A stretch of 38,844 nt of DNA from Patescibacteria group bacterium (GCA_018816485.1 JAHIVL010000061.1:1-38844); one strand, 5' to 3'. Positions 11,656 to 37,765 are shown, numbered from the stretch's first letter. Notes: generated from the sequence alone by a model not told the origin. Numbers and translations: made by a program.

Positions 11656-11658
11656 CAT
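11640..11658 (+). repeat. direct repeat copy 1 (tRNA-Ile 3' end, agtccctctcgactcacat)
   Basis: An identical 19-mer recurs at 11777-11795. Confidence 0.9.
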
Positions 11659-11697: not shown

Positions 11698-11776
11698 ATT
11701 TAAGATGATGAGGGACGTCCAGTGCCCGATCAAGCGAGTTTCTTTTGAAAAATATGGCATGAGCCTGACGAGGGTA

Positions 11777-11795
11777 AGTCCCTCTCGACTCACAT
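11777..11795 (+). repeat. direct repeat copy 2 (att-like duplicate of the tRNA-Ile 3' end)
   Basis: Identical to 11640-11658. No matching tRNA 5' half is present upstream. Confidence 0.9.
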
Positions 11796-11941
11796 TGGGT
11801 GATTATAGAATGATATAATTAGTTATAGTTAGTAACTATTTATATAAATTAAACAGCAAAATATAAATTATCAAAAATAGAATAATATGATGTGCCCCGA
11901 TAAAGAAAAATTCGATAATTTCGTCTTTAAGAGGATATGAT

Positions 11942-12118
11942 GTGAAAACAGAAACAATAAAAACATCCGATCTTGAGGTTAACTTGGATATTAAAAGCGT
12001 TGATTGGCAAGAAGTTGCTCAAGACATGCATGTTTTTGTTGAATATATTAGAGCTATTCTTAGAAGTGAACAGAACGTATTAATGTTAGCCTTGTTGGAC
12101 AACATAAAATGTGTATAG
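11942..12118 (+). pseudogene. possible 5' gene fragment (58 codons) truncated at a dispersed repeat
   Basis: GTG start preceded by the Shine-Dalgarno sequence aagagga at 6-nt spacing. The translation (VKTETIKTSDLEVNLDIKSVDWQEVAQDMHVFVEYIRAILRSEQNVLMLALLDNIKCV) looks protein-like. The stop codon lies inside the 52-bp repeat at 12106-12157. This ORF is not in the supplied ORF track. Confidence 0.3.
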
Positions 12119-12363
12119 TAATAGTTTAAAAATGTGCACTTTTCCTTGATCCTAGTAATACTACCAATTACACAAGGATCAAAGCAAACTAAGATTACAA
12201 CTTGTCTACCTCTAAAGCTAAACCAAACCCCATCCAATGCTAGATATCCGGATCTTTTTGGATGAAATATATTATCTATAGTTAAAAACTTTTGTAGTCT
12301 TTCTAGCAAATCGCTAAGTTTTTCATTCCACAAATCTAGATTTCCGTTATAATTTTCCAGCAA
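12019..12363 (-). pseudogene. DDE transposase-like fragment
   Basis: 114-aa ORF. The segment LALDGVWFSFRGRQVVILVCFD has the D-x2-aromatic-x4-G-x9-D spacing seen around the first catalytic Asp of IS6/IS1-type DDE transposases. The ORF is too short for an intact enzyme, its C-terminal third looks non-coding, and a possible N-terminal piece (MNPDQKIKIGGKSPVDI) lies upstream in another frame. Confidence 0.3.
12106..12157 (+). repeat. dispersed 52-bp repeat, copy 1
   Basis: aaaatgtgTatagtaatagtttaaaaatgtgcacttttccttgatcctagta. It matches 32059-32110 with one mismatch, in the same orientation. Confidence 0.9.
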
Positions 12364-12548
12364 TATCTACTGGTGATTTCCCACCAATCTTAATTTTTTG
12401 ATCTGGATTCATATATATTGTCGCTATCTGTTCCAAGAATTAAGATTTTATGTAGCTGTAAGAATCTTTTTTTGAAACTTTCTAAATCATCATAGTTACG
12501 TTATTTAACAAGAGTTAATTCACTTACCTTCAGCCAAAAAATTTACTC

Positions 12549-14066
12549 TTAATCCCTTCCCCGCCAAAAATATAGCTCAAGATACTGCATGCCTATTTTT
12601 TGAATATGGCATAGTTGTCTAAATGCACCATAAGCTTTTTCAGTCATTTTATTTTCTAAATCATGATCTAATAAAACTTTAATAAGTTCATTAGTAGATT
12701 CTTCAACTACCCCTTCTTTAACCACTGGCAAACCAGTTTCCTCCCATGGTTCTAGGTCATCACTATCTCCAACCTGAATGATTCCATTAATGTGACTCAA
12801 TATATCTTTGACTGCCACTGGATAGCCAAACATCATCATGATAATTTTTGCCCAAGCAGCCTCAATAGCCTGGTTGCCCCAACCTTCATGGGTAGGAACA
12901 TAAAGAACACCATCTACAATTCCGCTTTTAATGAAACTATAAAATGAGTGTTTACCAGCCGATTGATCCTCATTAGTATATTGAGCATCTGCCACAATGT
13001 CATCTCCAATAAAAACTAATTTTACGCCCATCTCTTTGGCGTACTCTTTAATTTTTGAATAATATTCACTATCAAAATCAGCCGATTGGATAACTAACAA
13101 AAAAATATTGCTTTCTGAATCAAATGTTTTAGAGCTACGTCCAACTCCATTTTCATGATTCTCTAGCAGCTTTCTTTTATCTTGAATGCTTTTCACGATT
13201 CTTATGGCTGTTTGATAGCCTTTATTTTTTCTAGTTCTGGTTGTAAGTGCCAAAACTAAATCATTTTCTTTAATGCCATATTTTTCTAGTAGCTCTTTTT
13301 TATCTTCTTGTGACATTTCTTCAACTTCTTTGTCAAAGTCGAAACCGTCTGGAATAAAGGTTGATACTACTCCTTTTCGCTTTTTTAATTCTGCTTGAGC
13401 TATAGTATTGATACAAATATGTCGAGTATTTTCAAAGTTTGGTGCTGTAATTTTATTCACAAGCTTGTTAATTTTTTCATATTTACTGACATATTTGGTT
13501 GCATCAGGTCCTTCCCAATAAAAATCATGATGATGTAAAATAAATCTAGTTTCTGGTCGATTTTTAATTACCTCGTGGACGGCAACTGCAGCCTGAATAT
13601 GTAAAAATGGCAAAGCTGAAAGATTTCTAATATGGACTATATCAAGTCTATTTTCATCAATAAATGTAATCATTTGCTGGTAAATAACATCAGCACCATT
13701 GTTAATTTTTGTTAACAGTGCATTTTCTTGTTGATCTAAAGTTTCTTGATCCAGATCTGCCATATCCTGATCTAAAATTTTATCTCTTAAACAAGTAACG
13801 TTTTTATTGTGGTAATCTAGTTCTGGAGAATTTGAACTGATCTCACTTTCTGTAGTATCGGCTGCTAGAGAAAAGGTTTTCGCCCCAAGACTATTTAAAA
13901 ATACTTGAGTTTCTTGTGCTTGTAGAGAAACTCCGTCTGTGCCATATAAAAAGTAGTGTATCTGTCCTATTTGTTTGTCCTTAATTATATTCGACATTTC
14001 TTCTAAAGAAAGTTTCGGTGTCTCAATTATTAATGGTCTTTTTTTAGCTTCTTCTTTTGCAAACAT
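12549..14066 (-). CDS. GT-B fold glycosyltransferase (GT4-like)
   Basis: 505 aa. The C-terminal PTHEGWGNQAIEAAWAK resembles the GT4 E-x7-E nucleotide-sugar binding motif. An HHHDFYWEG block is also present. Confidence 0.55.
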   Translation of the reverse strand: MFAKEEAKKRPLIIETPKLSLEEMSNIIKDKQIGQIHYFLYGTDGVSLQAQETQVFLNSLGAKTFSLAADTTESEISSNSPELDYHNKNVTCLRDKILDQDMADLDQETLDQQENALLTKINNGADVIYQQMITFIDENRLDIVHIRNLSALPFLHIQAAVAVHEVIKNRPETRFILHHHDFYWEGPDATKYVSKYEKINKLVNKITAPNFENTRHICINTIAQAELKKRKGVVSTFIPDGFDFDKEVEEMSQEDKKELLEKYGIKENDLVLALTTRTRKNKGYQTAIRIVKSIQDKRKLLENHENGVGRSSKTFDSESNIFLLVIQSADFDSEYYSKIKEYAKEMGVKLVFIGDDIVADAQYTNEDQSAGKHSFYSFIKSGIVDGVLYVPTHEGWGNQAIEAAWAKIIMMMFGYPVAVKDILSHINGIIQVGDSDDLEPWEETGLPVVKEGVVEESTNELIKVLLDHDLENKMTEKAYGAFRQLCHIQKIGMQYLELYFWRGRD

Positions 14067-22916: not shown

Positions 22917-25590
22917 CATCTAAGAGGTCGATCTAATATTTAATTCTGAATTTTAAAACCGAATATTCGCGTTCTTTAAATAAAAAAAATAAATGTTTTA
23001 AAAGCGAACGCTTTCGAGCTTGTCTCGATGAGAGCTTTTAAAACAATTATTTTTGATTAGAAAATCAGAATAAAATTGGTTATTAAATATTAGTTCTTTG
23101 GTTTTACCTCACCAGGTCTTACTGAGAACTAACATTTAGCAACTAATTATTGCTGAAAAATGGATTTGTTGACTAAGTTAACATTTTCGACAAGGTAGTT
23201 AATACGGCAGGACTCTCAAGTTGTAAAAACCGTATATAAACCTAAATCCTTGAGATCTGGAATGAAAACAACAAAATTGTTTGTGATTGCCGACATGGCG
23301 ACTAATAACAAGTTTTCAGAAAAGAGTTGATCTTTAACAAGTGAAGAAAACTGTCATGTATAGGTCAAAATGATGATTTAATCATCAGTGGCCATGCATC
23401 TTTTTAAAATTTCAATAAAAAATTGTACTAAACTGTGCGGCAACGCACTAAATTGTACAAACATTTCGTCTTGAAATTACAAAAAAAAACAAATGCTACA
23501 AGTCGAGACTACGCAAGTAGTTTCGCATGCTAAAGTCTATTTACACAAGTGCAAACTCGTGTTTATAGCAAGCTTATAGAAATATAATAGCGATATATAA
23601 ATGAAAATTTATGTGAATTAATGCAGATAGTGGATGCCTAGGCTTATCTGGCCGATGAAGGACGCTAACCCCGCGAAAGTGGTTGGGTAACTGGGAAAAA
23701 GTTATGATCCAGCCGTGTCCGAATTGAGAAATCACGCTACGTGAGAGCGTAGTGGCCCTAATTTTTTAAATTAGGTGGGTAACCTCCCGAACTGAAATAT
23801 CTAAGTAGGGAGAGGAAAAGAAAACGTAAGAGATTCCCCGAGTAAGCGACGAGCGAAAAGGGACTAGTCCAAACCCGGAATTTATTCCGGGGGTTGTAGG
23901 ACCTCAACATTTGACTTTAAAAGATAGAAGAACACTTTGGAATAAGTGATCAAAGAGGGTGATAATCCCGTAAGCAAAATCTAATAAAGCGATAGAGGAT
24001 TCCTGAGTAGGTTGGGAGACGGCAAACTCCCTTCTGAATCTGGGGTGACCACACTCCAAGACTAAATACCAGATAAGACCGATAGTGAACGAGTACCGTG
24101 AGGGAAAGGTGAAAAGAAGGGTTGAAGACCCCGTGAAATAGAACCTGAAACCATCTGCTAACAATCAGACAAAGCACATTTATTGTGTGATGTCGTGCCT
24201 ATTGAAGAATGAGCCGGCGAGTATTTGACAACTGCTTCAGGTTAAGACATTTCGTGTCGAAGCCGTAGTGAAAGCGAGCGTGAATAGCGCGAATCTGTAG
24301 TTGTTGAATGACCCGAAACCGGGTGAGCTTACCATGACCAGGATGAAGCCCTGATAATATCGGGGTGGAGGTCCGCACCGGTGTATGCTGCAAGATGCTC
24401 GGATGAGTTGTGGTAAGAGGTAATATGCCAATCGAACCCGGAGATAGCTGGTTCTCCCTGAAATATATTTAAGTATAGGGTTACGTGAAGTTGCGGGGGG
24501 GTAGAGCACTGATCTGGTGTCTTGGGCGAAAGCCTAAGCGCTTAGTCAAACTCCGAATACCCCGTAATGTTTCGTAGCACTCAGCACCTGGGAGCTAAGT
24601 TCCAGGAGCAAAAGGAAAACAAACCAGACCTACAGCTAAGGTCTCAAATTACATATTTAGTGGCGAAAGAAGTGTTATTCCTAACACACCTAGGAGGTCG
24701 GCTCAGAAGCAGCCATCCTTTAAAGAAAGCGTAACAGCTCACTAGCCGAGGAATAATGCGCTGAAAATCCAACGAGGCTCAAATATGTAACCGAAGCTTA
24801 GGGTTCTAGTGTCAGATTTATTTGATATTGGAGCGGTAAGGGAGCGTTCTGTGTGCTTTGAAGCCAGCCCGTGAGGAGCTGGTGGAGCGATCAGAAGTGA
24901 GAATGCCGGCATGAGTAGCGAAATTGGGGTGAGAATCCCCGACTCCGAATGACCAAGGTTTCCGCACCCACGTTCGTCGTGTGCGGGTTAGGCGACCCTA
25001 AGGTGAGCCCTCGTTAATGAGGGGTAGCCGATGGATTACTGGTTAATATTCCAGTCCTTGGTTAGGATCATTTGACTTGGGGAGGGACGGTGATGGATAA
25101 CATGTGAGCAGCGGTGAATGTTGCTTCAAAGCACTAAAGCAGTCTGGATAGGAAAATCCGTTCAGGCGTTTATCTGAGGTGTGATAGGGCTCTGATTCCT
25201 TTTGGAAGACGAGTTACATGCGATTTCATTATCCTGGAAAAGCTTCGCAAGGAGATTCTAATCAAATCGTACCGATAACCGACACAGGTAGTCAGGTCGA
25301 GTAGACTAAGGAGAGCGAGAGAAAATAGTTTAAGGAACTCGGCAAAACAGCTGGGCGTAATTTCGAGAGATGCCCTCCTCTTTATAGCAATGTAAAGAGG
25401 CGCAGTGAATGTCATGAGGTTGACTGTTTACCAAAAACACAGGTCTGTGCAAACTCGTAAGAGGAAGTATACGGGCTGAAGCCTGCCCAGTGCCGGAAGG
25501 TTAATTGAGGGGGTTTTGTCTAATTTATTAGATAAGGCCTCTGATCGAAGCCCCGGTGAACGGCAGCAGTAACTATAACTGTTCTATGGT

Positions 25591-26301
25591 AGGAAAGCTG
25601 CCTTAGTAAAACTCAACTATATGCTGGAAACCCTGAGAATCTTGATCTACTCATTAAAATATGGTATATATTTACCATAAATGAGTGAAAATGATCCAAG
25701 TGCAGACAATCAGCAGGGAAGACTTGAATTCGCTAGTTGGATAATTGGTTTTGTTGATGGAGAAGGATGTTTTTCAGTCAGTATTTTTCGTAATAGAACG
25801 AGCAAATTTGGTTGGCAGGTAATGCCAGAATTTGTGATAACTCAATCTGAAAGAGACCTAGATGTTCTTAAAGACATCAAAGCTTTTTTCGGTTGTGGAA
25901 ATATCTTCGTAAATCGAAGATATGATAATCACAAACGTAATTTATATCGCTTCTGTGTACGCAAACGTTCTGATTTGACAAACGTAATCATTCCATTTTT
26001 CAATCAATATCCATTACTGACCAAGAAACATTTAGATTTTATTACTTTCAAAAAAGTAGTAAATATGATGAATAAAAAGCAACATTTTCAAACAAAAGGT
26101 TTGAATAAAATTGCTAAATTGGTTGGTAAAAATCTAGAACGAAATCAAGAACCCTCAGAGACTATACGTTGAGCTCAATTATTTAATTGAGAAGATATAG
26201 TCCGATCTCATAGGCGACTATGAGGATCTTTAAATACAAGCGTCGAAGATCATAAAAACAAAGCGTACAATTACTAAATATTTATTTAGTATTTGTTTAT
26301 G
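25591..26301 (+). mobile_element. group I intron 1 in 23S (about E. coli position 1931) carrying a LAGLIDADG ORF
   Basis: The exon junction restores ..CTATGGT|AGCGAAGTTCCTTGTC. The intron follows a U and ends in G. A P7-like gatatagtcc core lies downstream of the ORF. Confidence 0.8.
25681..26172 (+). CDS. LAGLIDADG homing endonuclease (single-motif type)
   Basis: 163 aa. The motif WIIGFVDGEGCFSV is a LAGLIDADG motif. The ORF lies entirely inside intron 1. Confidence 0.88.
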   Translation: MSENDPSADNQQGRLEFASWIIGFVDGEGCFSVSIFRNRTSKFGWQVMPEFVITQSERDLDVLKDIKAFFGCGNIFVNRRYDNHKRNLYRFCVRKRSDLTNVIIPFFNQYPLLTKKHLDFITFKKVVNMMNKKQHFQTKGLNKIAKLVGKNLERNQEPSETIR

Positions 26302-26864
26302 AGCGAAGTTCCTTGTCACTTAATTGGTGACCCGCACGAAAGGTTTAACAAGCCTCATACTGTCTTGAACTATTACTCGGCGAAATTGAAATGGCTGTGA
26401 AGATGCGGCCTACTGACAACAGGACAAAAAGACCCCGTAGAGCTTTACTACAACTTGGCACTGACGGTGAATATAGGATTGTTTAGAATAGGCGGGAGGA
26501 AACTTCATTTATGACGTTTCCGACCAGTGAAATACCGCCCGTTTTGTATTTATCATCTAACTTAATCATGCTGCAAACGCATGAAAGAACACTGTCTGGT
26601 GGGTAGTTTAACTGGGGAGGTTGCTTGCTAAAGAGTAACGCAAGCGCGCAATGGTATTCTTCGCCTGGATAGAAATCAGGCTGGACGTGCAATAGCATAA
26701 GAATGCTTTACTGTGAGACATACAAGTCGAGCAGTTGCGAAAGCAGGTTATAGTGATCCTCGTGTGTTTTGTGGAAGACACCGGGCTTATCGGATAAAAG
26801 TTACCTCGGGGATAACAGAGTCATCGCGCCTAAGCGTCCCTAGCGTCGGCGCGGTTTGCTACCT

Positions 26865-27256
26865 TTATTAACATTGGGGTCCCTTAACAGTAATGTTAAG
26901 GTGCTGTTCTTGAGTAGAAAGACAACTCAATTTCTACTATCAAGATAAAAATGGGCTCATAACGGTGAACCCTTCGTTTTATCGGATAGATAAAACATGG
27001 TAATACCGTGGGAAGTCCAACAAAAGATCAAAATTCTATACCTCAAAGGGTATAATTAAGAGCATTTGCTTTTAATTTAGTAGTGGATAACATTACAAGC
27101 TTTTGTTGTGACCCCGTATCGACTTGAGAGTTGGGGCAATTATGCAAACTCTCAGATGGAATGAATAATCATTTCATAACACGCCCACGTCCTTTATGTA
27201 GAAACAAAGGATGGTGGTATAGTCAGACTCTTGGCGAAAGCCTTGAGATAAATTCG
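26865..27256 (+). mobile_element. group I intron 2 in 23S (about E. coli position 2500), ORF-less
   Basis: The junction restores TTTGCTACCT|CGATGTCGGCTCATC. The intron follows a U and ends in G. A ggtggtatagtc core is present. Confidence 0.75.
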
Positions 27257-27303
<47 letters not shown>

Positions 27304-27349
27304 AGTCTGTTCGCCTATTAAAGCGGTACGCGAGCTGGGTTCAGACCGT

Positions 27350-27741
27350 CAACTAACGGCGGCTTTTTCGAGTAATCGAAATCGAATAAATCGACTCATA
27401 TCGGTGAAACCCTAACAAACACTCAACCTGTCGTGTGTTAGGATAATACCGAGGGAAGTTGTATTCCTGTACATATTATGAAAAAAAATCTTTTTTAAAT
27501 TGAATTATTCAAAAAAAAGAAAAATATGTACTAAGGTGGTTCGTAATCACCTGATAGAAAAAGGAGTATTAACCCCGTAGAGACTTGTTTGTGTAACGAG
27601 CAAACAGAATTGTTTTTAATAAAAATAATTAACACGTCGATCCCCTACACTTTGCAATAAAAACAAAGAATGATGTAGGGTGGTGGTATAGTCCATCCTC
27701 TTAGTAATAAGAGATTTTATATACTTTTATGTATATATATG
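27350..27741 (+). mobile_element. group I intron 3 in 23S (about E. coli position 2593, the I-CreI-type site), ORF-less
   Basis: The junction restores GGGTTCAGACCGT|CGTGAGACAGGTCGG. The intron follows a U and ends in G. A ggtggtatagtcc core is present. Confidence 0.75.
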
Positions 27742-27884
27742 CGTGAGACAGGTCGGCCTCTATCCGCTGTCAGCGTTAGATAGTTGAGAGAATTTGCCCA
27801 TAGTACGAGAGGACCTGGGTGAGGGAATCCCTAGTGTTCCAGTTGTTGCTGTCAAGCGCACTGCTGGGTAGCTACATTCCTTAT

Positions 27885-27917
<33 letters not shown>

Positions 27918-28258
27918 AATCTCAAGATTAACTATCTCCATTAGACCCGTGGGAGAACACCACGTTGATAGGTAGTCGGTGTAAGCCTGGTGACAGGCTA
28001 AGCCTAACTATACTAAGTGTTGATCGAACATAATTTTCAAATTTTAATTTTTGAACGTTAGCGAGTTGTGCAATTTATTGTGCGCCCGCCAAACAAATTT
28101 TCAAACTTTAAAAGCATGGACACTGTGTTACATCAACTAAATTTTAATCTAATTAACGTTTTTCATATCTTTTTGACCCATGGCAGATTTTCTTCACTTG
28201 TTAGAGTCCAACTCTAATTAACAATTTAATATTACTTAACCGCGTAAAGAACGTTTAA

Positions 28259-28376
28259 TTCTGGTCTCTAGAGCGAGGTGGAACCAACTCTTCCCTTCCC
28301 GAACAGAGTCTTGAAACTCCTCAGCGCTGACAATAGTGCATGGGCAACTGTGTGTGAAGATAGGTCGAGGCCAGAA
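28259..28376 (+). rRNA. rrf: 5S ribosomal RNA
   Basis: 118 nt. Helix I pairs ttctggtctc with gaggccagaa. The internal CCCGAACAGAGTCTTGAAAC..CAGCGCTGACAATAGTG matches the bacterial 5S consensus (CCGAAC.CAGAAGTGAAAC..GCGCCGATGGTAGTG). A T7 run follows. Confidence 0.88.
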
Positions 28377-28391
28377 TTAAGCGTTTTTTTG
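28310..28391 (+). repeat. 82-bp direct repeat, copy 1 (3' 67 nt of 5S rRNA plus a 15-nt T-rich trailer)
   Basis: Matches 36141-36222 with two substitutions by hand alignment. Confidence 0.9.
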
Positions 28392-28440
28392 TGGGCAAAA
28401 TTAGTTTTCTATTAACCCTGAATTGAAGCCAATTAAAGTT

Positions 28441-28469
28441 TTCGAATTTCTTTATCCTGGTGCTATAAT
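28441..28469 (+). promoter_or_regulatory. candidate promoter with extended -10 (TTCGAA-17-[TGC]TATAAT) for the 28561-31804 operon
   Basis: TGCTATAAT lies at 28461-28469, and a weak -35 hexamer lies 17 nt upstream of the -10 hexamer. Confidence 0.4.
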
Positions 28470-28560
28470 AAACATGTATCCTTAAGATGTAATTATATCC
28501 GTGAGGGCATATCCGAGAGAACCTGTGGTTCATGAAGGTACAAGTAAATAGTAAAATAAT

Positions 28561-29580
28561 ATGAAAATTTTATTAAATATTCCTCAAAGTAAATGGGATA
28601 ATAGCAACATTAGTAGAGCACTTGCAAGTTTTCCAGGACAAATTTTAACCTATGTTAAGAAAACTGATGCAGCAGCAATTTTAAGACTTGAGCAGTGGTT
28701 ATCAATAATTTTATGGAGATGGTACTTTTTAGTCAATGATTCTTTAACTACTTCACCATATCTTTATTTAATATGGAGGCATGATTTAGAAAATTGGCCT
28801 AAAGAAAGTCAGTTCTTAGTTATTGCAAAAACTAATTTTATAGACCAGAAAATTAATATAACTCTTGACGTTGATGCAATTGATTTTAATCAACAACCAT
28901 TATTGGTTGACCTATTGAATGTAAAATCTAAAATAAATTCAAAAACAAATTTATTTTTCCCCAATGATTCTGTATACACGAAGTTAATTGAGAACCTAAA
29001 ACTTGAATTTACCAAAGATGTTAAAGATATCAAAGGTTTCACAGAGAATAAAAATCCAAATAAACTAGATCAATCTCAAATTCAATTAACTAAAAAAATA
29101 GTTGTCTACTTACTTGATGAATGGCATAAGACTGATGAAATTATAAATAAAAGTTGGACTAAAGTAGAATGGCAGGGTCTTTGGAGTTGGGTATTTTCAT
29201 TTATCCAAAAAGAAGATGAACTCACTTCAGAAATGTTTTCCGATAAAATTATTAAACATACACGTAAAACAATGCCCACTTTTGGTTTAACTGGCCAAGA
29301 AATGGAGCAAATGGAACAGAATAATGCTTCTTACTCAAGGTCCCAAGCAAGTAGTCAATTTATGTTTTGGTTAAATTGTACGAGATTTTTTACACTTCCT
29401 TTGTCATGGTATTTACACCTAGTAGCGCCAGTTTTTCTTGAACAATTGAATTTTGATCAAGATATCAAAGATACCTTAACAAATTTTTTTGAAGATCCAA
29501 TTCTTCTTTTTAATCCATTTTCTGCGATATCACTTACTAGTTTTGGGAGTCAAGTATTAACAGAGGATCTTTGGAGGTAG
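28561..29580 (+). CDS. hypothetical protein (no recognisable domain)
   Basis: 339-aa ORF, Trp-rich. Its stop is 4 nt before the start of the next gene. Confidence 0.7.
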   Translation: MKILLNIPQSKWDNSNISRALASFPGQILTYVKKTDAAAILRLEQWLSIILWRWYFLVNDSLTTSPYLYLIWRHDLENWPKESQFLVIAKTNFIDQKINITLDVDAIDFNQQPLLVDLLNVKSKINSKTNLFFPNDSVYTKLIENLKLEFTKDVKDIKGFTENKNPNKLDQSQIQLTKKIVVYLLDEWHKTDEIINKSWTKVEWQGLWSWVFSFIQKEDELTSEMFSDKIIKHTRKTMPTFGLTGQEMEQMEQNNASYSRSQASSQFMFWLNCTRFFTLPLSWYLHLVAPVFLEQLNFDQDIKDTLTNFFEDPILLFNPFSAISLTSFGSQVLTEDLWR

Positions 29581-29584
29581 ATTT

Positions 29585-31804
29585 ATGGGTTTAAGTTTTA
29601 ATAGTAGTCTCAAGCCGGAAGAACATAAAAAAATTGGTCGTAATGAACTATGTTCATGTGGTAGTGGTAAGAAATTTAAAAAATGTTGTTTACAAAAGCA
29701 GAACGAACAACAATATTCTGCAGGTAATAAACAAGGGAAAGTTGCTAGAGTTGTAGATTGGGTAACCCAGCAGCCGTGGAATGAATGGTACTTACAAGCT
29801 TATTTCAAGCGTTATTATCCAAATTTGACTATGGAAGAATCAGAGATGAGTGCGATTATGGATTTAGCTATTTTTGAAGGACTAGTTGGCAGTAAGACTC
29901 CACTGGAAATGTTTGTGTCTCAAGCTACTTTAACTACTTCAGAAAGAAATTATTATCAAAGCTGGACTGATAATCATATCTTTTCTTTTTTTAAAGTTCA
30001 AGAAGTTGATTTAGGACAAAGTGTTGTTCTTAAAGATTTGCTATCTAAATTGGGTAAAACATATTTTGTACTAGAAAAGCAGGGCACTTATACTATGTCT
30101 GTTGGTACTGTTGTAGCCGCACGACTTGTTTCTCATTATGATGATTGGATGATGAGTGGAGGAGCGCTTTTTGCCCTGCCATCAGAATTTACACATCTGT
30201 TACAAAAAAATAGAGATAAACTTCCTAGTGAAGGAATTACTCAACAAGAGTTCATGGAAAGCTCACTACCTCAATTTGACCACATAGATAAAGATTCTTT
30301 GGTTGAAAATGGCTACACTCTTGATGAGGTGGAGAAAGCATTGAGTTTACTAGGCGAAGAACTTGATGTTGTTGAGGTATTACAACGATGTAAACCTGTT
30401 GCAATGGGAACTAGCGTTGTTAACGATAAACAATTGAATAGCAGTGAATTGTATAAAAATGATCTGCAAGAAATAATTTTTAAATGCGATAGTCAGCACC
30501 AAATTAATAGACTATTTAGCTTACTAAAAAGGTTGGGTGACTTAACTGTCCCGGATAGTTTTGATAGCAATGTTAGTAAACAGATTCAAGTAGGGAAAGC
30601 TGAGGTCGAAAAATTTGAATTTAAAACAAACTTTGCGGATTCTCATGAAGGTTTATCTTCCAAGCAAATTAAAATTTATAATAAGGCCGCAAGCAACTTG
30701 CTCAATAAAAAACCACTATTAGCTCTTAAGCAGTTTGCTCAATTGACATCTGTTGTTGAGTCAATAGATGAGTCATTTCGTTGGTATGGCAATGTAGGAA
30801 CGTGTTTGTCAATGTTGGGACAATTAAAATTAGCAGAGTCATTTTTTAAAAAGGCTGTAAGGATTAATTCTAACTACGATGTTGCAAAAAACAACTTAAA
30901 AAATTTTGATGATGACAAGATTAAAGACCAGCTTATTAATCAAGGATCAATATATTTTTGGTCTATGTTTCATAGAACAAAGTGGGCCCTAAATTTAGCC
31001 GATAGCGTGAGTTCTAAGTTACTTCAAAAATCAAATCCAAGCTTATTACAAGATATGATAGTTTTTTTGAGTTATTTTGAAGATAATAAAGTAAGTTTAA
31101 CACCAAAAAGAAAAGATATTCCCTTAAAGACCGTGAAGGTTATTAATAAACTGTTTGTTGTTGCAGATTCAGAAACAATGTCTTACAAATTTAGCAAGGA
31201 GTCTGAGTTTTCTCAACTAAGGTTGTTACGTATGGTAGCTTTATTTACTGGTTGGGTTAAAATTACTACCACTGGGCGCAAAACATCCAGACCTATTTTA
31301 AGTATTACTAATAAGGGTAAAGAGTGGCTTAAGAAACCAGCCTTGGACCAGTTTAGTATGTTGCTCACAGCCTGGTGGGGGGATACTGCATGGGAAGAGG
31401 TATATGATTTTCATAATTTAGCTACTGGCTTTATTGAGCAATCTCTTGGTTTTTATCAAGATTCTTTGTTTGTGTGTTTGAGAAGTCTTTACTGGGCTAA
31501 TGGATGGCTCTCTTTAGAGAAAGTAATGGGTAGTTTTTCTTCAACGGCGGATGAGTTTGAAATTTTCTTATCTAGCTCTATGTTTGAAAGGGATGTCTTA
31601 ATATTTTTAACTAAGGCGGGATTGGTGAAGCCTAAGTACCAGGATTTAGTATTTGTTAGGGGAGAAATATCGTTTGATGATGATCCAGACGACAAAAGAG
31701 AGCAAGCTTATAAAATGACAGCTTTAGGCAGGCAAGTATTTGTAGTGTTGGAAGAAAGATTGAGAGGTATGGTGCCAAAAGAAATTTTGCAGATGGAGTT
31801 GTAG
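29585..31804 (+). CDS. SEC-C motif / TPR-containing protein of unknown function
   Basis: 739 aa. The N-terminal CSCGSGKKFKKCC is a SEC-C zinc-binding motif. A TPR-like segment (YGNVGTCLSMLGQLKLAESFFKKAVRINSNY) is present. The C-terminal region looks winged-helix-like, which is inference only. Confidence 0.75.
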   Translation: MGLSFNSSLKPEEHKKIGRNELCSCGSGKKFKKCCLQKQNEQQYSAGNKQGKVARVVDWVTQQPWNEWYLQAYFKRYYPNLTMEESEMSAIMDLAIFEGLVGSKTPLEMFVSQATLTTSERNYYQSWTDNHIFSFFKVQEVDLGQSVVLKDLLSKLGKTYFVLEKQGTYTMSVGTVVAARLVSHYDDWMMSGGALFALPSEFTHLLQKNRDKLPSEGITQQEFMESSLPQFDHIDKDSLVENGYTLDEVEKALSLLGEELDVVEVLQRCKPVAMGTSVVNDKQLNSSELYKNDLQEIIFKCDSQHQINRLFSLLKRLGDLTVPDSFDSNVSKQIQVGKAEVEKFEFKTNFADSHEGLSSKQIKIYNKAASNLLNKKPLLALKQFAQLTSVVESIDESFRWYGNVGTCLSMLGQLKLAESFFKKAVRINSNYDVAKNNLKNFDDDKIKDQLINQGSIYFWSMFHRTKWALNLADSVSSKLLQKSNPSLLQDMIVFLSYFEDNKVSLTPKRKDIPLKTVKVINKLFVVADSETMSYKFSKESEFSQLRLLRMVALFTGWVKITTTGRKTSRPILSITNKGKEWLKKPALDQFSMLLTAWWGDTAWEEVYDFHNLATGFIEQSLGFYQDSLFVCLRSLYWANGWLSLEKVMGSFSSTADEFEIFLSSSMFERDVLIFLTKAGLVKPKYQDLVFVRGEISFDDDPDDKREQAYKMTALGRQVFVVLEERLRGMVPKEILQMEL

Positions 31805-31820
31805 GTAAAAAACTTGATAA

Positions 31821-31893
31821 TGTTTCTGTAGATACTAAAAATTATAGTAATTATAGAAATGATTGAGAAAATAAAAAAAGTACCATTTTTATC
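31821..31893 (+). repeat. 73-bp direct repeat, copy 1 (duplicate of the abiEi upstream region plus its first 12 codons)
   Basis: Identical to 34619-34691. The duplicated ATG at 31859 opens only a 21-codon ORF (MIEKIKKVPFLSQSSFSISPN). Confidence 0.9.
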
Positions 31894-31954
31894 ACAAAGC
31901 TCCTTTTCCATTTCGCCAAATTAGGCGAAAATTGGTGAATTGAGGTTAACTGTA

Positions 31955-32005
31955 ATAAACTGACGCCAGTTTGGTAGAGAAATCATGTCAAACTGGTGTC
32001 AGTTT
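31955..32005. other. 17-bp-arm inverted repeat (taaactgacgccagttt / aaactggtgtcagttta) with a 17-nt loop
   Basis: Read directly from the sequence. The single mismatch would be a G-U pair in RNA. Confidence 0.5.
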
Positions 32006-32058
32006 AATTTGGTAAAACTTATTCGGTACTTGATTTTGGACGTGTGACCAATAGTGTA

Positions 32059-32110
32059 AAAATGTGCATAGTAATAGTTTAAAAATGTGCACTTTTCCTT
32101 GATCCTAGTA
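32059..32110 (+). repeat. dispersed 52-bp repeat, copy 2
   Basis: Matches 12106-12157 with one mismatch, in the same orientation. It abuts the truncated 5' end of the AlbA_2 pseudogene. Confidence 0.9.
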
Positions 32111-33038
32111 TTTACCCTATAGTTTTAGAAAAACAACAAGGAAGTAAAAAATATATTGAGATTGTGGTAGAAAAAAGTTTTATCTCTCCACATTTTGCAG
32201 ACCACATTGCTTATCAAAGAGTTGGAAGGACTTCACAAAAGCTATCTGCTCAAGAAATAGAAAAATATATTTCTCAAAGAAATACTGTTAGTTTTGACAA
32301 TACAGCACTTTTGCCAGTAAAAATTGAGAATATATCTATTGCCAAGGTTAAAGAGTTTTTAGATTCAATTAATAAAAATTATCCTGTGAATTCTTACCTT
32401 CTTTCTAGAAATTGCTTAAAACAAGAGTCAGCAGTATCAAGCTCTTTACCTACTTTTAACTCCTACAGTTGCAGGTATTTTACTATTTGGAGAGGATCCA
32501 CAGTCATTTCTCACTCAGTCACATATTACGTTAGTTGATTACACCAAGTCGGCACAAAAAGAAGTTAAAGTAATAAAATCTATTGCTGGAACAGTGTTGG
32601 AGCAGTTATCACAGCTGGTTGAGAATATTTACAGGGCTTTACTCTCCTTTGGATATTTTACCCAAAAATGAGATAAAAAGAAAAAAAGTCTATGTGATTC
32701 CACCAGCTATTTTAAGAGAGATACTGGTTAATGCACTTACTCATAGGGATTACTCTGATTATGGAAGAAAAACAATTATCCAGTTGTATAAAGATAGATT
32801 TACCATCTCTAATCCAGCTAGATTTGATAAAAATATAACAGAAAATGACTTAATTAACTATCAATACTCACAAAATCCTATTTTAACTAGAGTCTTTTTT
32901 GAAGCAGGATTGATAGAGGAAATTGGTAAAGGATATAGCTCATCTGAGTTGGCGAAGTCTCTAGATGTTTCAAAGGATACTATCTTGAGTGATTTGGAAA
33001 CATTAAAATCATTAATTAATATTGTTGACGAAGGGTAA
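32083..33038 (+). pseudogene. decayed AlbA_2 / HATPase_c_4 (Schlafen/RecG-C-terminal-like) putative DNA-binding regulator
   Basis: The N-terminal part of the AlbA_2 domain is missing. Three reading frames are needed to recover the conserved blocks: HIAYQRVGRTSQKLSAQE (frame 1), LTPTVAGILLFGEDPQSF (second frame) and AILREILVNALTHRDYS (ORF 32583-33038). This implies at least two frameshifts plus a 5' truncation. Confidence 0.7.
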
Positions 33039-33139
33039 GGTAGAACAACTAGATATCGTTGGATTCAGTAAACTATAAATCAAACCATAAACAATGGTCA
33101 TTGTTATAATGTCTATTGTTGTGTTAAAATAACAACTAT

Positions 33140-34600
33140 ATGAAAAAATTTTATAATCGAAAAGATGAAATCCAGGCTTTACTAGATATACACAAAGAAT
33201 CAAAAGACCAAGCTAGATTTACTTATATTATCGGTCAAAGAAGAATTGGCAAGACGAAGTTAATAGAACACGTATTTCTAAATTCAAAATTTCAAAAAAA
33301 GAACAAAGTTGTGTACTTTTTTGTTGAACGTAAATCTGTAGATGCTCTTTTACTAGAGTTTACAGATTTGTTAAAAAGTATTTTTGATCTTACCCCAGAG
33401 TTTAAAGATTTATCTTCATTTTTTAAGTATCTTTTTGAGCAATCTAGACACCAAAATTTAACAATAATTTTTGACGAGTTTCAAAATTTTAGTTATGTTG
33501 ATTCAAGTGTCTTTTCTACTTTGCAAAAACTATGGGACAAACACAAATATGAATCTTACCTCAATTTAATTACTATCGGGTCAATATATTCTTCAATGGA
33601 AAAAATATTTGTATCAAAACATGAACCTTTATTTGGTAGGCCTACAGATAAATTATCTCTTAAAACATTTAGTATTTCCACTTTACAAGAGATATTAAAA
33701 GATAATAAAGTTAATAGTTTTGACCAGTTACTAAGTAATTTCACATTATTTAATGGTATTCCTAAATATTGGGATATTCTTGAATATAAGAAATTGTTGA
33801 ATAAAAAACCAGACGAAATTTTACTTGATTTATTTTTATCTTCACGGTCTTTACTAAAGAATGAAGGTAAAGAGTTACTTATGGAAGAATTTGGTCCAGA
33901 ATATCATACTTATTTTTCTATTATTGAGGCTATAGCAACACTTAGTAAAGTTTCAACTAATAAAATAGCTTCTAGGGTAGGTATTGAGTCTCATCATGTT
34001 AGTACTTACTTAGCATCTTTAAATAAAAAGTTTAGTTTAATTACTAAGAAAAAATCACTAATTAATTTCTCAAATAAAAAAGGGAGATATATACTTAACA
34101 ATAGATTTTTGCAAACTTGGTTTAGGTACATATTTGCTAATAAAAGTTTAGTGGAGTCTGGGAACAAACAAGAGATTATAAACAAATTTAATAAAGATTT
34201 TCAGAGTTATAAAGGACTGGCTTTTGAAGATCTTACTATTCAGATACTAAAATCAACTTATCAAAAGTTTTCATATGAAACATGGGGAGGGTATTGGGAC
34301 AAGCAGAGAGAAATAGATATTGTAGGTATAAATAAATCTGAAAAAACTGCGATGATTGGAGAGTGTAAATTATCTGTTAATATGGTTAATGATGAAATAG
34401 TTCAAAAAATGGAAGAAAATGCTAGATACTTGAGTTCTGTTTTGGTGGGTTACAAGGTTAAAAAATATATCTTTGTTGCTAGTAAAGGTAGTAAGAGTAA
34501 AGCTAAGCAGTGGGATGATGATTATGGTATTAAGTTGGTTGATAAAGATGAGCTGTTAGGTTTAATAACTGAATCAACTCGGAATGAGTGTTGCGAGTAG
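33140..34600 (+). CDS. Arch_ATPase/DUF234-family AAA+ ATPase with a PD-(D/E)xK-like C-terminal motif
   Basis: 486 aa. FYNRKDEIQALLD...GQRRIGKTKLI supplies Walker A and IIFDEFQNF supplies Walker B. The C-terminal EIDIVG-x12-IGECKLS resembles a restriction-endonuclease-fold motif. Confidence 0.8.
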   Translation: MKKFYNRKDEIQALLDIHKESKDQARFTYIIGQRRIGKTKLIEHVFLNSKFQKKNKVVYFFVERKSVDALLLEFTDLLKSIFDLTPEFKDLSSFFKYLFEQSRHQNLTIIFDEFQNFSYVDSSVFSTLQKLWDKHKYESYLNLITIGSIYSSMEKIFVSKHEPLFGRPTDKLSLKTFSISTLQEILKDNKVNSFDQLLSNFTLFNGIPKYWDILEYKKLLNKKPDEILLDLFLSSRSLLKNEGKELLMEEFGPEYHTYFSIIEAIATLSKVSTNKIASRVGIESHHVSTYLASLNKKFSLITKKKSLINFSNKKGRYILNNRFLQTWFRYIFANKSLVESGNKQEIINKFNKDFQSYKGLAFEDLTIQILKSTYQKFSYETWGGYWDKQREIDIVGINKSEKTAMIGECKLSVNMVNDEIVQKMEENARYLSSVLVGYKVKKYIFVASKGSKSKAKQWDDDYGIKLVDKDELLGLITESTRNECCE

Positions 34601-34618
34601 TTGTTTAATGTGTTATAT

Positions 34619-34691
34619 TGTTTCTGTAGATACTAAAAATTATAGTAATTATAGAAATGATTGAGAAAATAAAAAAAGTACCATTTTTATC
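34619..34691 (+). repeat. 73-bp direct repeat, copy 2 (native abiEi 5' region)
   Basis: Identical to 31821-31893. Confidence 0.9.
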
Positions 34692-35277
34692 TAAAACAGC
34701 GCTTGCTGTGGCTTTAGATAAAAATAAAAATACTTTGCGCAACACTATAGATTATTGGGTTAAAAACAAAACTCTTACGAGGCTTAAGAGAGGTTTTTAT
34801 GTGTTTAGTAGTTTTTTAGACAGAAAAAATAACTCACTATATTATTCTAAATTTTTAGCGACTAAATTGATAGAGCCAAGTTATTTGAGTAAGGAATTTA
34901 TTCTACAAGAATATCAAATATTGACAGATGTAGTGTATGGTTATTCAGTAGTTACTTTAAAAAAGACAAATACTATTGCGAATAAATTTGGAGTTTTTAA
35001 TTATAGTTCAATAAAAAAAGACTTATTTGTTGGTTTTTCTCAAGTATCATATGGAAGTATGAGTTGGTATGTGGCAAGCAAGGCCAAAGCACTGTTTGAC
35101 TATATTTATTTTAATCAAAACAAATTTACCACTTTTTCTGAAGGTGAGTTACTTGGTTTAAGGTTAAGATTAGAAGTGATGTCTGCTCAGGATTGGAAAG
35201 AGTATAAAAAATATCTTAAAAAAGCACCAAAAAAAATGAGTCAGATTTATAAAATTATGGAAACATCACTATGTTAA
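34657..35277 (+). CDS. abiEi: AbiEi-family type IV toxin-antitoxin antitoxin / transcriptional regulator
   Basis: 206 aa with an N-terminal wHTH ending in LTRLKRGFYVF (the AbiEi_4 pattern ..rl.rGvY). It overlaps the downstream AbiEii gene by 7 nt. Confidence 0.75.
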   Translation: MIEKIKKVPFLSKTALAVALDKNKNTLRNTIDYWVKNKTLTRLKRGFYVFSSFLDRKNNSLYYSKFLATKLIEPSYLSKEFILQEYQILTDVVYGYSVVTLKKTNTIANKFGVFNYSSIKKDLFVGFSQVSYGSMSWYVASKAKALFDYIYFNQNKFTTFSEGELLGLRLRLEVMSAQDWKEYKKYLKKAPKKMSQIYKIMETSLC

Positions 35278-36128
35278 TAGATAATTTAAAAGAAATAGTG
35301 CAGATTAGTAGAAGTAAGAATATGTCTGTAGAGTATATAAAAATTGAACTTAAAGAAGTATTAATTGACTATACTTTAGATTTTATCTATAACTCACCAA
35401 AGTGGAACAAACTTATTTTTGGAGGTGGAACTGCTTTGAAAATGATTGGCAAGACAGCGAGATTGTCCGAAGATTTAGATATGGATTACTTAACAGCAGA
35501 ATTTGATTCAAAAGGTTTTGTTAAGAGTTTGCTAGCTTTTTTTAAAAATCTTGGAGTAGGTGAAGTCACAACAACACTGCAACATAAGGATCAAATTATT
35601 ACAATTAAGTTTCCAATCTTAAAAGAACTGGGTTTGATTAAAGATATAAAAAATGAAAGTAATTTACTTTATTTAAAAATAGAACTAGAGAAGAACAAAT
35701 ACTCTGAATTTACAACGGCAGTGACTCCTTTTATGAAAAACAACTTATTTTCTGTGGTTAAACACTATGATTTGGAGACACTTTTTGCCAATAAAATTGG
35801 CGCCATTTTGGGTAGAAAAAACAAGATCTATCATGATAAATATGATTTCAAAGGTCGTGATTTTTATGATCTAATTTGGTTTTTACAGCATAGCATTAAA
35901 CCAAATTTAAAAAGATTAAAGCAAATAATTAAAATTGAGCAAAAAAAGACAGTAGAAAATTACGATGATGTCTGGAAATTGCTAACAAATAGAGTTAAAG
36001 AAGTAAATACTGCTGGAATTTATGCAGATATGAAAAATTTAGTTAAAGAACCCGCAGGCATCAAACAATTGGCCAATAATTATCTAGAAATATATTCTTC
36101 TTTGGTAAAAAAACTGAGTTATAGCTAA
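35271..36128 (+). CDS. abiEii: AbiEii/AbiGii-family nucleotidyltransferase toxin (DUF1814)
   Basis: 285 aa. FGGGTALKMIGKTARLSEDLDMDY matches the AbiEii NTase motifs (GGTAL...R.S.DLD). Confidence 0.85.
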   Translation: MLIDNLKEIVQISRSKNMSVEYIKIELKEVLIDYTLDFIYNSPKWNKLIFGGGTALKMIGKTARLSEDLDMDYLTAEFDSKGFVKSLLAFFKNLGVGEVTTTLQHKDQIITIKFPILKELGLIKDIKNESNLLYLKIELEKNKYSEFTTAVTPFMKNNLFSVVKHYDLETLFANKIGAILGRKNKIYHDKYDFKGRDFYDLIWFLQHSIKPNLKRLKQIIKIEQKKTVENYDDVWKLLTNRVKEVNTAGIYADMKNLVKEPAGIKQLANNYLEIYSSLVKKLSYS

Positions 36129-36140
36129 GATTTACAAGAG

Positions 36141-36222
36141 CTTGAAACTTCTCAGCGCTGACAATAGTGTATGGGCAACTGTGTGTGAAGATAGGTCGAG
36201 GCCAGAATTAAGCGTTTTTTTG
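36141..36222 (+). repeat. 82-bp direct repeat, copy 2 (orphan 5S rRNA 3' fragment plus trailer)
   Basis: Matches 28310-28391 with two substitutions. No 5S 5' half precedes it. Confidence 0.9.
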
Positions 36223-36271
36223 CGCCTATTTTGATGTTTAGTCTTTTCACTCGAGGTGATATAGTACCGTT

Positions 36272-37045
36272 ATGTTGAGTTACTTTTCTAAATACTGGTT
36301 TGATTTTGTCTGGGTGATGACTTTAAAAGAGATAAAAGCACGATACAAGCGTGTTTTTTTAGGATTTATTTGGGCAATTTTAAATCCAATTTTTCAAATG
36401 TTGGCTATTGGGTTTATATTCCAATTTTTTATTCCAGTAAAGATTGACAACTATTTCTACTTTCTATTTGCAGGGCTTCTTCCTTGGAATTTTTTTTCAT
36501 ATACATTTAGTAAATGTACCCCATTAATGCTTAATGAAAGATCTCTTATTCAAAAAGCAAAGTTTCCCAGAGAAGCACTTGTTCTTTCAATTGTTTTTTC
36601 AAATCTATTTCATTTTTTAATATCTCTATTTTTATTTACAGTGCTGACTATTTTTGTAGGCTATCTATCTTTGTTTAAATTATTTATTTTGTTTTTAGCT
36701 ATTTTGTGGTTAGTTTTCTTTACTATAGGAATTTCTTTTTTGTTATCGACGCTTTTTGTACGATACAGAGATATAAAATTTATTGTTCAAGCAATTATTC
36801 CTTTGTGGTTTTATGCAACTCCAATAATATACACAAGAGCTCTTTTGCCAGAATGGGTAGCAACTATTTTAAAGTTTAATCCTATGACAGGAATTATTGA
36901 GTTATTTCAGTTTGTTTTTATAAGTGGGAACTCAATTATTAACTTAGAAGCAGTTGTCCCAGGAATTTTAATTTCACTTACAATTGTATTAATTGGGATT
37001 TATTTATTTAAAAGGGACAATCAATATTTTGATGATTGGTTGTAA
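36272..37045 (+). CDS. ABC-2 type polysaccharide/teichoic-acid export permease (Wzm/TagG-like)
   Basis: 257 aa with six TM segments. The N-terminal IKARYKRVFLGFIWAILNPIFQM is typical of ABC-2 exporters. Confidence 0.85.
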   Translation: MLSYFSKYWFDFVWVMTLKEIKARYKRVFLGFIWAILNPIFQMLAIGFIFQFFIPVKIDNYFYFLFAGLLPWNFFSYTFSKCTPLMLNERSLIQKAKFPREALVLSIVFSNLFHFLISLFLFTVLTIFVGYLSLFKLFILFLAILWLVFFTIGISFLLSTLFVRYRDIKFIVQAIIPLWFYATPIIYTRALLPEWVATILKFNPMTGIIELFQFVFISGNSIINLEAVVPGILISLTIVLIGIYLFKRDNQYFDDWL

Positions 37046-37048
37046 AAA

Positions 37049-37765
37049 ATGAAAAAAAATCAAAAAAAATTAGCAATAAAGATTAAAAATGTAACAAAAA
37101 CCTATGTTTTACGTCATGAAAAACCAACGCTGATAGAAAGTTTGCTCTATAGACCAAAAAAAGGAATTCATACTGCGTTAAAAGATATATCCTTTTCTGT
37201 ATATGAAGGTGAACGACTAGGAATTATTGGTAGTAATGGATCTGGAAAAACCACTCTATTAAAGTTAATTGCTGGGATTACAAAGCAGCAAAAAGGAGAT
37301 ATAAAAGTAAATGGAAGAGTAGTATCGCTAATTGATCTTTCAGCTGGTTTTCACCCAGATTTAACTGGTGAGGAAAATATTTTTTTGAATGGGTTGGTTA
37401 TTGGAATGACCAGAAGAGAAATTGAAGAAAAAAAACAATCAATTATAGATTTTGCAGATATTGGAAAGTTTATTGATGCTCCACTATATACTTACTCTGG
37501 TGGGATGGAGTTGAGATTGGGCTTTGCTATTGCAGTTCATTCTAATCCAGATGTATTGTTAGTTGACGAGGGTTTTGCGGTTGGAGATGAAAATTTTAGA
37601 GAAAAGGCTCACAAAAAAATTCTAGAGTTTAAAAGACAAAAAAAGACGTTAGTTATGGTTAGTCATTGGATTAGTGAATTAGAGCGCAATTGTAATAAAT
37701 TTTTATGGTTAGAAAGAGGTGAAATTGTTAAGTTTGGTGGAAAAGAAGTGCTAAAAAAATATTAA
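37049..37765 (+). CDS. polysaccharide/teichoic-acid export ABC ATP-binding protein (Wzt/TagH-like)
   Basis: 238 aa. Walker A is GSNGSGKTT. SAGFHPDLTGEENIFLNG is characteristic of the TagH/KpsT/Wzt clade. Walker B is LLVDEGFAVGD. Confidence 0.88.
   Translation: MKKNQKKLAIKIKNVTKTYVLRHEKPTLIESLLYRPKKGIHTALKDISFSVYEGERLGIIGSNGSGKTTLLKLIAGITKQQKGDIKVNGRVVSLIDLSAGFHPDLTGEENIFLNGLVIGMTRREIEEKKQSIIDFADIGKFIDAPLYTYSGGMELRLGFAIAVHSNPDVLLVDEGFAVGDENFREKAHKKILEFKRQKKTLVMVSHWISELERNCNKFLWLERGEIVKFGGKEVLKKY

Follow-up and report, generated by a model that had tools for sequence, protein, structure and literature searches.

Accessory genes between two copies of a 5S rRNA 3' end in a Patescibacteria group bacterium: a possible case of homology-anchored recombination at the end of an rRNA operon

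How does a block of accessory genes come to lie between a complete 5S rRNA gene and a detached piece of the 3' end of the same gene? The question is raised by a stretch of DNA from a Patescibacteria group bacterium (GCA_018816485.1, JAHIVL010000061.1:1-38844). The whole stretch of 38,844 nucleotides (nt), called the window below, contains 7.75 kb of accessory DNA (28392-36140) which is bracketed by 5S-derived direct repeats. The original prediction likened this block to the islands that tyrosine integrases leave at RNA gene ends, with 5S as the target. It is proposed here, with about an even chance of being right, that positions 28392-36140 are horizontally acquired DNA lying where the single 23S-5S operon of a Patescibacteria (Microgenomates-type) bacterium ends, and that they entered by ordinary host recombination at the conserved end of the rRNA operon, the other end being joined illegitimately (3'-end displacement), and not by the action of a site-specific recombinase.

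The two copies of the repeat (28310-28391 and 36141-36222) are 82 nt long each, differ at two positions and are separated by 7831 nt from start to start. Their coordinates, first given from inspection of the sequence, proved to be exact, and a match of this length is beyond chance (expectation 0 in 100 dinucleotide-preserving shuffles). At both mismatches C is present in the left copy and T in the right one, and the longest identical run is 52 nt. The left copy (28310-28391, +; this sign marks the plus strand here and below) consists of the last 67 nt of the 5S gene and a 15-nt T-rich trailer, TTAAGCGTTTTTTTG. It is continuous with a complete 5S rRNA gene (28260-28376, +), which is recognised by Rfam with 65.1 bits over model positions 1-120 and is identical in alignment to the 5S gene of a relative, L040 (loci and contigs are given by such labels where they have to be told apart). 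The precursor made of leader, 5S and trailer TTAAGCGTTTTTTTG forms a leader-trailer stem of 23 bp, with a fold z of -4.4. The right copy (36141-36222, +) is an orphan 5S 3' fragment with its trailer, devoid of the 5' 50 nt of the gene; its fold is not stable (z +1.06) and the Rfam 5S model does not recognise it even at E<=1. Both Rfam and folding agree with the early description of a complete, foldable 5S at the first copy and an orphan 3' fragment at the second. When a function for the orphan was sought, no Rfam match, no stable fold and no terminator-like site were found, and the fragment is to be considered dead, without apparent function. Between it and the stop codon of abiEii, the last gene of the block, lies a junction of 12 nt, GATTTACAAGAG (36129-36140, +), in which ACA..AGAG may represent a microhomology to the 5S positions that immediately precede the repeat: in the joint TTTACAAGAG is followed by CTTGAAAC, in the 5S gene GAACAGAGT is followed by CTTGAAAC, and ACA and AGAG are common to both with an offset of 1 nt.

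A repeat of this kind could also result from an assembly chimera formed through the 82 nt, for example if a separate circular element had been threaded into the chromosome. The DNA does come from a metagenome assembled from short reads, and the repeat interrupts the Logan contigs of SRR6514274; the breaks fall exactly 30 nt inside each copy, which fits a graph with k=31 that holds both copies, the value of k being an assumption about the assembler. Several results speak against a chimera. Contig k141_1343554 of the European Nucleotide Archive (ENA), 38787 nt long, is near-identical to the window of 38844 nt and has the same structure; about 7 substitutions and one indel of 57 nt separate the two, which are otherwise 99.95% identical. 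The k141 in its name implies a k-mer that exceeds the length of the repeat, only 52 nt of the repeat are identical, and the substitutions tie each copy to its own flank. Besides the agreement of these two separate assemblies, contig L003, obtained from another sample (SRR27458548), spans the right junction from AbiEii through the orphan into the ABC-2 gene at 100% identity, and the trailers of the left and right copies, described below, each make evolutionary sense among the relatives. Misassembly is regarded as extremely unlikely.

Whether the block was inserted or has always been there can be judged from related genomes. Relatives were collected by a search with the ABC-2 permease against species-representative genomes, which gave 24 loci, and by a search of metagenomes with a 5S 3' pattern, which gave 26 further loci. 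An empty site, in which 5S is followed by the ABC-2 permease of a glycan exporter after a gap of 51-172 nt, was seen in about six distinct related lineages (L006, L007/L037/L053, L018, L031/L032, L039, L040 and L046). The gap measures 172 nt in L006 (isolate HK-STAS-PATE-15, contig of 1.08 Mb), 51 nt in L007 (Candidatus Pacebacteria) and 118 nt in L018 (by Rfam). Because relatives have 5S directly before the permease, the adjacency of 5S and exporter is ancestral in the clade, and the window has an insertion of 7.75 kb. The empty sites that the original prediction proposed to look for thus exist, and its view of a block set between core genes stands. The accessory block is absent beside 5S in all close relatives seen. 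A second copy of the 5S 3' end was present in none of 30 related 5S loci (from one pattern scan per large collection, many of the loci being short), nor was other cargo between 5S-derived repeats, which had also been suggested as a thing to search for, encountered among them; two 5S 3' ends were seen only in the window's own contig, among the loci examined. Other cargo does follow 5S without any 5S repeat in L008 (4.1 kb), L051 (4.1 kb) and L043 (1.2 kb), and it consists of glycosyltransferase, epimerase and methyltransferase genes of the glycan cluster. Two scans of viral contigs and BLAST against phage records returned no match for a 5S fragment on mobile DNA. Among the relatives ABC-2 is 70-85% identical and rRNA 96-100%; 5S itself is 98-100% identical across the aligned close relatives. 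As a side remark, the records of L006, L010, L011, L015, L016 and others are titled Pseudomonadales or Gammaproteobacteria, while their rRNA and gene content match Patescibacteria (e.g. HK-STAS-PATE-15), and the titles look mislabelled.

The next question is which of the two 5S ends belongs to the resident chromosome, and here the trailers are informative. In L046 the complete 5S is followed by TTAAGCGTTTTTTTG-CGCCTATTTTGATGTTTAGTCTTTTTACTCGAGGTGTTATAGTACCGTT-ATG. The orphan of the window is followed by CGCCTATTTTGATGTTTAGTCTTTTCACTCGAGGTGATATAGTACCGTT-ATG, and 47 of these 49 bases are the same as after the complete 5S of L046 (CGCCTATTTTGATGTTTAGTCTTTTTACTCGAGGTG...). This segment (36223-36271, +) is the native trailer together with the region upstream of ABC-2, and it has kept the conserved GAGGTGnTATAGTACC motif intact, 7 nt before the ATG of the exporter. 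The orphan with its trailer is 96% identical to 5S plus trailer of L046 over 131 nt, and 97% over a trailer segment of 64 nt, but the ABC-2 gene behind the orphan is only 79% identical to that of L046. The intact 5S of the window is followed by TGGGCAAAATTAG..., which resembles the trailers of L039 (TGGCAAAAATTGAT), L007 (TGGCAATTTT) and L041 (TGGGCAAAATAG). This trailer of foreign lineage type (28392-28420, +) is not of the L046 type, the BLAST similarity of relatives reaches 28401-28416, and it would represent the left edge of the 5S locus that the incoming DNA brought along. Since the trailer of the orphan is of L046 type and that of the intact 5S is of other lineages, the orphan appears to be the 3' end of the resident gene, still in its native surroundings (attR-like), and the 3' part of the working 5S, perhaps all of it, seems to have come with the foreign DNA (attL-like). 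The attL/attR-like topology recognised at the outset is in this way borne out.

The region upstream of the intact 5S is a patchwork. According to per-segment identities in the alignment, the 23S-5S spacer and 5S leader (28038-28259, +) are L046-like at 28095-28215 and L040-like at 28048-28094 and 28216-28259, and from 28216 onward leader and 5S are identical to L040. Because leader and 5S are L040-identical while the spacer just upstream is L046-like, the lineages have recombined within the operon end, and the patchwork of the spacer indicates that such inter-lineage recombination took place there repeatedly. The spacer of the window also lacks two segments, of about 60 and 50 nt, which are present in relatives.

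Islands with RNA-gene repeats commonly carry the enzyme that moved them, and the block was searched for one. Pfam and PADLOC, applied to the ORFs (open reading frames) of the block, to its frameshifted parts and to the remaining ORFs of at least 90 amino acids in the 38.8-kb window, detected no integrase, serine recombinase or transposase, and the absence noted on first reading can be extended to the whole window. Transposon features are missing as well: there is no transposase, there are no terminal inverted repeats at the ends of the block, and the repeat of 82 nt compares with 2-15 bp for a target-site duplication; on these three grounds a transposon with target-site duplication was rejected. 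The place beside 5S that is usual for an integrase is occupied by ORF339 (28561-29580, +), the first gene of a two-gene module, whose product is an unknown protein with a new fold and no match in Pfam, PADLOC or PDB. Its family is rare and counts about 50 representatives at 50% identity (profile against 1.84 billion proteins), and no member has a Pfam match or a sequence relative in PDB by the family profile. The AlphaFold2 model built from an alignment of 28 sequences is confident (pLDDT 89, pTM 0.89) and replaced a first, poor one (pLDDT 44); Foldseek found no structural neighbour for it in PDB (best E 0.63, TM 0.11). The second gene, ORF739 (29585-31804, +), has a SEC-C motif, TPR and DUF7986. 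The two closest homologues of ORF339 are located in loci with toxin-antitoxin genes and without 5S sequence; in L057 the homologue is paired with a SEC-C/DUF7986 gene, and in L056 an unannotated ORF, cut by the end of the contig, has the same position. Some more distant partners of ORF339 carry an antitoxin-type domain, Xre_MbcA_ParS_C, and the distant relatives of SEC-C/DUF7986 and of AbiEii occur in varied loci, never beside 5S. ORF339 and ORF739 may form an uncharacterised pair of toxin-antitoxin or defence type. A cryptic recombinase in the form of ORF339 was dismissed, given the lack of a domain in Pfam or PDB, the confident fold without a recombinase-like neighbour and the homologues away from 5S; the broader search for such an enzyme among the ORFs of the block, with Pfam and PADLOC and for ORF339 also with PDB and Foldseek, was likewise negative.

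A further observation comes from inside the block, where a second direct repeat, D2 (31817-31898 and 34615-34696), is nested; the repeat search gives it 82 nt, and 73 nt of it are identical. Its left copy (31817-31898, +), just after ORF739, is an orphan consisting of the abiEi promoter/operator and the first 14 codons. The right copy (34615-34696, +) is continuous with the real abiEi at the start of the conserved AbiE module. Between the two lies a piece of 2.7 kb with a gene remnant and a DUF234 ATPase gene. D2 begins exactly where the nucleotide conservation of the AbiE module begins (73-78% identity to L064 and L065 from other Patescibacteria). The repeat is also seen in a second sample, where the end of contig L060 falls exactly 30 nt inside the identical core. 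In the ENA contig k141_1343554 57 nt of the orphan copy (31830-31886) are missing, either as strain-level variation or as decay of the remnant. D2 mirrors what is seen at 5S: a conserved sequence, which would again have been the shared arm, is duplicated and the gene kept intact, at an unrelated sequence. Because the second insertion, bordered by D2, has no relation to 5S in its target sequence, a general mechanism is favoured; the two repeats point to a single homology-driven mechanism behind both insertions, whereas site-specific recombination would require two different enzymes, both missing.

The course of events under homology-anchored recombination could have been as follows. DNA of a related lineage would be taken up, comprising an operon end, a 5S with L040-type leader and TGGG-type trailer, and cargo ending 12 nt after abiEii. 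It would pair with the near-identical operon end of the recipient, and homologous exchange would occur upstream of 5S position ~51. The far, non-homologous end would then be joined to the recipient at 5S position ~51, so that the 3' end of the recipient's 5S (67 nt and trailer) would be left downstream, displaced by 7.8 kb, as an orphan with its native trailer and the upstream region of the exporter. The same topology would result if a circularised fragment had entered by one homologous crossover. A similar event inside the block would have brought the 2.7-kb piece to the 5' end of abiEi, with duplication of the promoter and 14 codons. The insertion was seemingly seamless, with 5S, processing stem and T-run intact on the left and the GAGGTGnTATAGTACC motif intact on the right. 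The anchor that this course needs is present in the 98-100% identity of 5S and in the mosaic of L046- and L040-like segments in spacer, leader and trailer, and the displaced resident fragment is kept downstream with its native flank (the 96% over 131 nt against L046). Patescibacteria were reported to keep genes of homologous recombination and competence (PMC12455944), and homology-anchored displacement leaving orphan 3' pieces was proposed for loci of type VI secretion systems (T6SS) and Rhs (PMC5361080).

Several points weigh against this proposal. The architecture fits a site-specific integrase equally well, and such an enzyme could be lost or act in trans. The microhomology at the illegitimate joint (ACA / AGAG with its 1-nt offset) is weak and could be due to chance. 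No donor locus with contiguous 5S-TGGGCAAAATT...-ORF339 was found, and no other sequence matches 28417-28560. At repeat position 32 the orphan has T like the intact copy and not C as in L046, so that an additional C>T change or gene conversion is needed. The recombination and competence genes are reported at the level of the phylum, the part of this genome that is available being 38.8 kb, and the whole is a single case from one lineage in two or three samples.

Of the competing explanations, a site-specific island, either decayed or cis-mobilisable, deserves most room and is possible, if somewhat unlikely. Its attP would have copied the 5S 3' end, and its tyrosine or serine recombinase would since have been deleted or would be encoded elsewhere or by a helper. 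The topology is exactly attL/attR-like, with the gene restored on the left and the displaced native 3' end and flank on the right, the site is empty in relatives, and in a composite and partly decayed block the loss of a gene is plausible; even a relic of tRNA integration may be at hand in the window, where a 19-nt repeat of the 3' end of tRNA-Ile, 137 nt away, resembles one. Set against this, 38.8 kb contain no recombinase, and ORF339 and ORF739, which alone leave room for one, have neither a recombinase fold or domain nor a link to 5S elsewhere. A second example is wanting in the 30 related 5S loci and no viral contig has the fragment, D2 would call for a second, different missing recombinase, and the left copy is followed by a lineage-typical trailer beyond what restoration of 5S needs, which is expected of chromosomal donor DNA. 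Because neither a recombinase nor recurrent use of the site was found when both were looked for, the block is not classed as an integrase island, and the suggestion of a tyrosine-integrase-type island with 5S as a dedicated site, faced also with a nested repeat at an unrelated sequence, is not upheld. A bolder form of the same idea, in which the 3' half of 5S is a genuine attachment site for unrecognised integrative elements of Patescibacteria, served by a recombinase in trans or by a new-fold protein (ORF339 with its SEC-C partner), and the island is the first example, is held to be improbable.

The direction of transfer might also be the reverse, the block having already been beside 5S when an L046-like exporter cluster replaced the resident one and its left end, by chance inside the donor 5S, underwent an illegitimate join behind abiEii. 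Relatives differ strongly in the exporter region (the 70-85% of ABC-2 against 96-100% of rRNA, and different glycan genes in L008, L043 and L051), and the orphan with its trailer is L046-like. The trailer, however, is 97% identical to L046 over 64 nt and the adjoining ABC-2 79%, which argues against a single recent origin; all close relatives have 5S beside ABC-2 and none the accessory block beside 5S, and the spacer immediately preceding the intact 5S is L046-like too, as fits an L046-like recipient. This reversed order is thought to be quite unlikely. As to a local duplication or repair artefact, in which a tandem duplication starting inside 5S was followed by deletion, or a template switch occurred, and the accessory genes arrived separately, it could account for the T that both copies share at repeat position 32, a position with C in L046, L039, L007, L006 and L008 and T in L040 and L036. 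The trailers of the two copies are nevertheless of different lineage types, at least two extra events would be needed and the relatives show the empty site, which together make such an artefact very unlikely.

The remaining genes of the block fit its accessory character. After ORF739 and the left copy of D2 comes a non-coding stretch (31899-32163, no strand assigned) with an imperfect hairpin at 31943-32019 and a 52-nt repeat at 32059-32110. It is followed by the remnant of a frameshifted gene with HATPase_c_4 and HTH (32083-33038, +), by a DUF234/ATPase_2 protein (33140-34600, +; Pfam 4e-21, PADLOC 4e-58) with an Mrr_cat-like C-terminal match, a candidate for defence system PDC-S27, and by AbiE. 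The latter comprises the antitoxin/regulator AbiEi (34657-35277, +; PADLOC 5e-36) and the nucleotidyltransferase toxin AbiEii (35271-36128, +; Pfam 1e-18, PADLOC 9e-35), whose genes are adjacent with an overlap of 7 nt and have the features of an AbiE type IV toxin-antitoxin or abortive infection system. Of the gene content initially assigned, an operon, the DUF234 ATPase and AbiE were found again, and AlbA_2 was not, only the C-terminal HATPase_c_4 and HTH of the decayed gene being detectable. AbiEii has many relatives with 60-76% identity in Patescibacteria, and the two contexts examined are both unrelated to 5S. The cargo as a whole (AbiE, the DUF234 ATPase and the pair of ORF339 with the SEC-C gene) is predicted to be of defence or toxin-antitoxin type. 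Its G+C content is 0.33-0.35 in the ORF339-ORF739 module against 0.27-0.29 in the DUF234-AbiE part, which fits separate origins of the two. To the right of the block lie the core genes of an ABC-2 permease and an ABC ATPase (36272-37765, +), which in relatives stand directly after 5S, and a QueC-like protein.

On the left the core flank is the 23S rRNA gene (23607-28037, +; Rfam LSU 2074 bits). It has three group-I-intron-like insertions (25593-26301, 26865-27256 and 27351-27741), which are absent in L046, L039, L006 and L008; their Intron_gpI matches, of 27.5, 30.6 and 23.2 bits, stay below the gathering score of 50. An ORF for a LAGLIDADG endonuclease (25681-26172) is enclosed in the first of these insertions, and similar insertions occur at 88% identity in L032, L034 and L053. 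A break induced by homing near the operon end could in principle have favoured the recombination proposed above. Upstream of 23S the window has tRNA-Ala (Rfam), and no 16S rRNA gene is found upstream of tRNA-Ala-23S-5S within 22 kb, 16S being thus unlinked from the rest of the operon. Farther away, the 3' end of tRNA-Ile (anticodon UAU, 11583-11656) recurs 137 nt later as a copy of 19 nt, AGTCCCTCTCGACTCACAT (11776-11794), a small att-like relic, and then come 750 nt (11800-12550) without a convincing gene. The 52-nt repeat of the block (32059-32110) recurs with 98% identity in this gene-poor stretch beside tRNA-Ile, at 12106-12157, and may be the remnant of a shared element.

Repeats that consist of an RNA-gene 3' end are usually taken for the trace of an integrase. 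Here the same trace is seen at a 5S rRNA gene without a recombinase, together with a nested one at an unrelated sequence, and such repeats are accordingly not diagnostic of site-specific integration. The case suggests that, where ultra-small bacteria have a single rRNA operon, its near-invariant end can act as a portable homology arm, through which defence genes could move between lineages while the rRNA gene and the neighbouring promoter are spared. If a 5S-specific integration system were real instead, it would add a new class of target for the methods of island finding, which now look at tRNA and tmRNA genes.

Among known systems the nearest in appearance are islands and prophages inserted by tyrosine integrases at the 3' ends of tRNA and tmRNA genes. 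They share with the present block the direct repeats of an RNA-gene 3' end, the gene restored on one side and the displaced native end on the other, the accessory or defence cargo and the empty site in relatives. They differ in that the target here is 5S, for which full-text searches of the literature library used yielded no report as an attachment site of islands, that no integrase, no recurrence in relatives and no fragment on viral contigs is seen, and that an additional, lineage-typical chromosomal trailer is present. Cis-mobilisable elements (CIMEs) are att-flanked islands which have been deprived of the recombination module and are recognised through a related complete element using the same att site. 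The att-like repeats at the flanks and the lack of an own recombinase are common to them and the block; a complete element using 5S is not known and was not found.

Closer in mechanism is homology-facilitated illegitimate recombination (de Vries & Wackernagel 2002; Prudhomme et al. 2002; Meier & Wackernagel 2003, as they are cited in PMC5361080). Both involve a conserved anchor on one side, joining of the other end without homology and no dedicated recombinase. The cases from classical experiments usually delete DNA of the recipient. Here, in contrast, the joint is located inside the anchor region and part of the anchor is therefore duplicated, the microhomology is weak, and the event is known from sequence alone. 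In the loci of Rhs, contact-dependent inhibition of growth (CDI) and T6SS effectors, displacement of the C-terminal or 3' end leaves fragments behind as orphans (Jackson et al. 2009; Kirchberger et al. 2017, PMC5361080). There too the incoming module brings its own copy of the conserved part and the old 3' part is pushed downstream with a conserved stub. Those are genes of protein toxins under diversifying selection, whose orphans can be useful (immunity genes), whereas the orphan described here is an rRNA fragment without apparent function. By analogy with these loci, the case would resemble a 3'-end displacement brought about by homology-anchored recombination, here in an rRNA gene.

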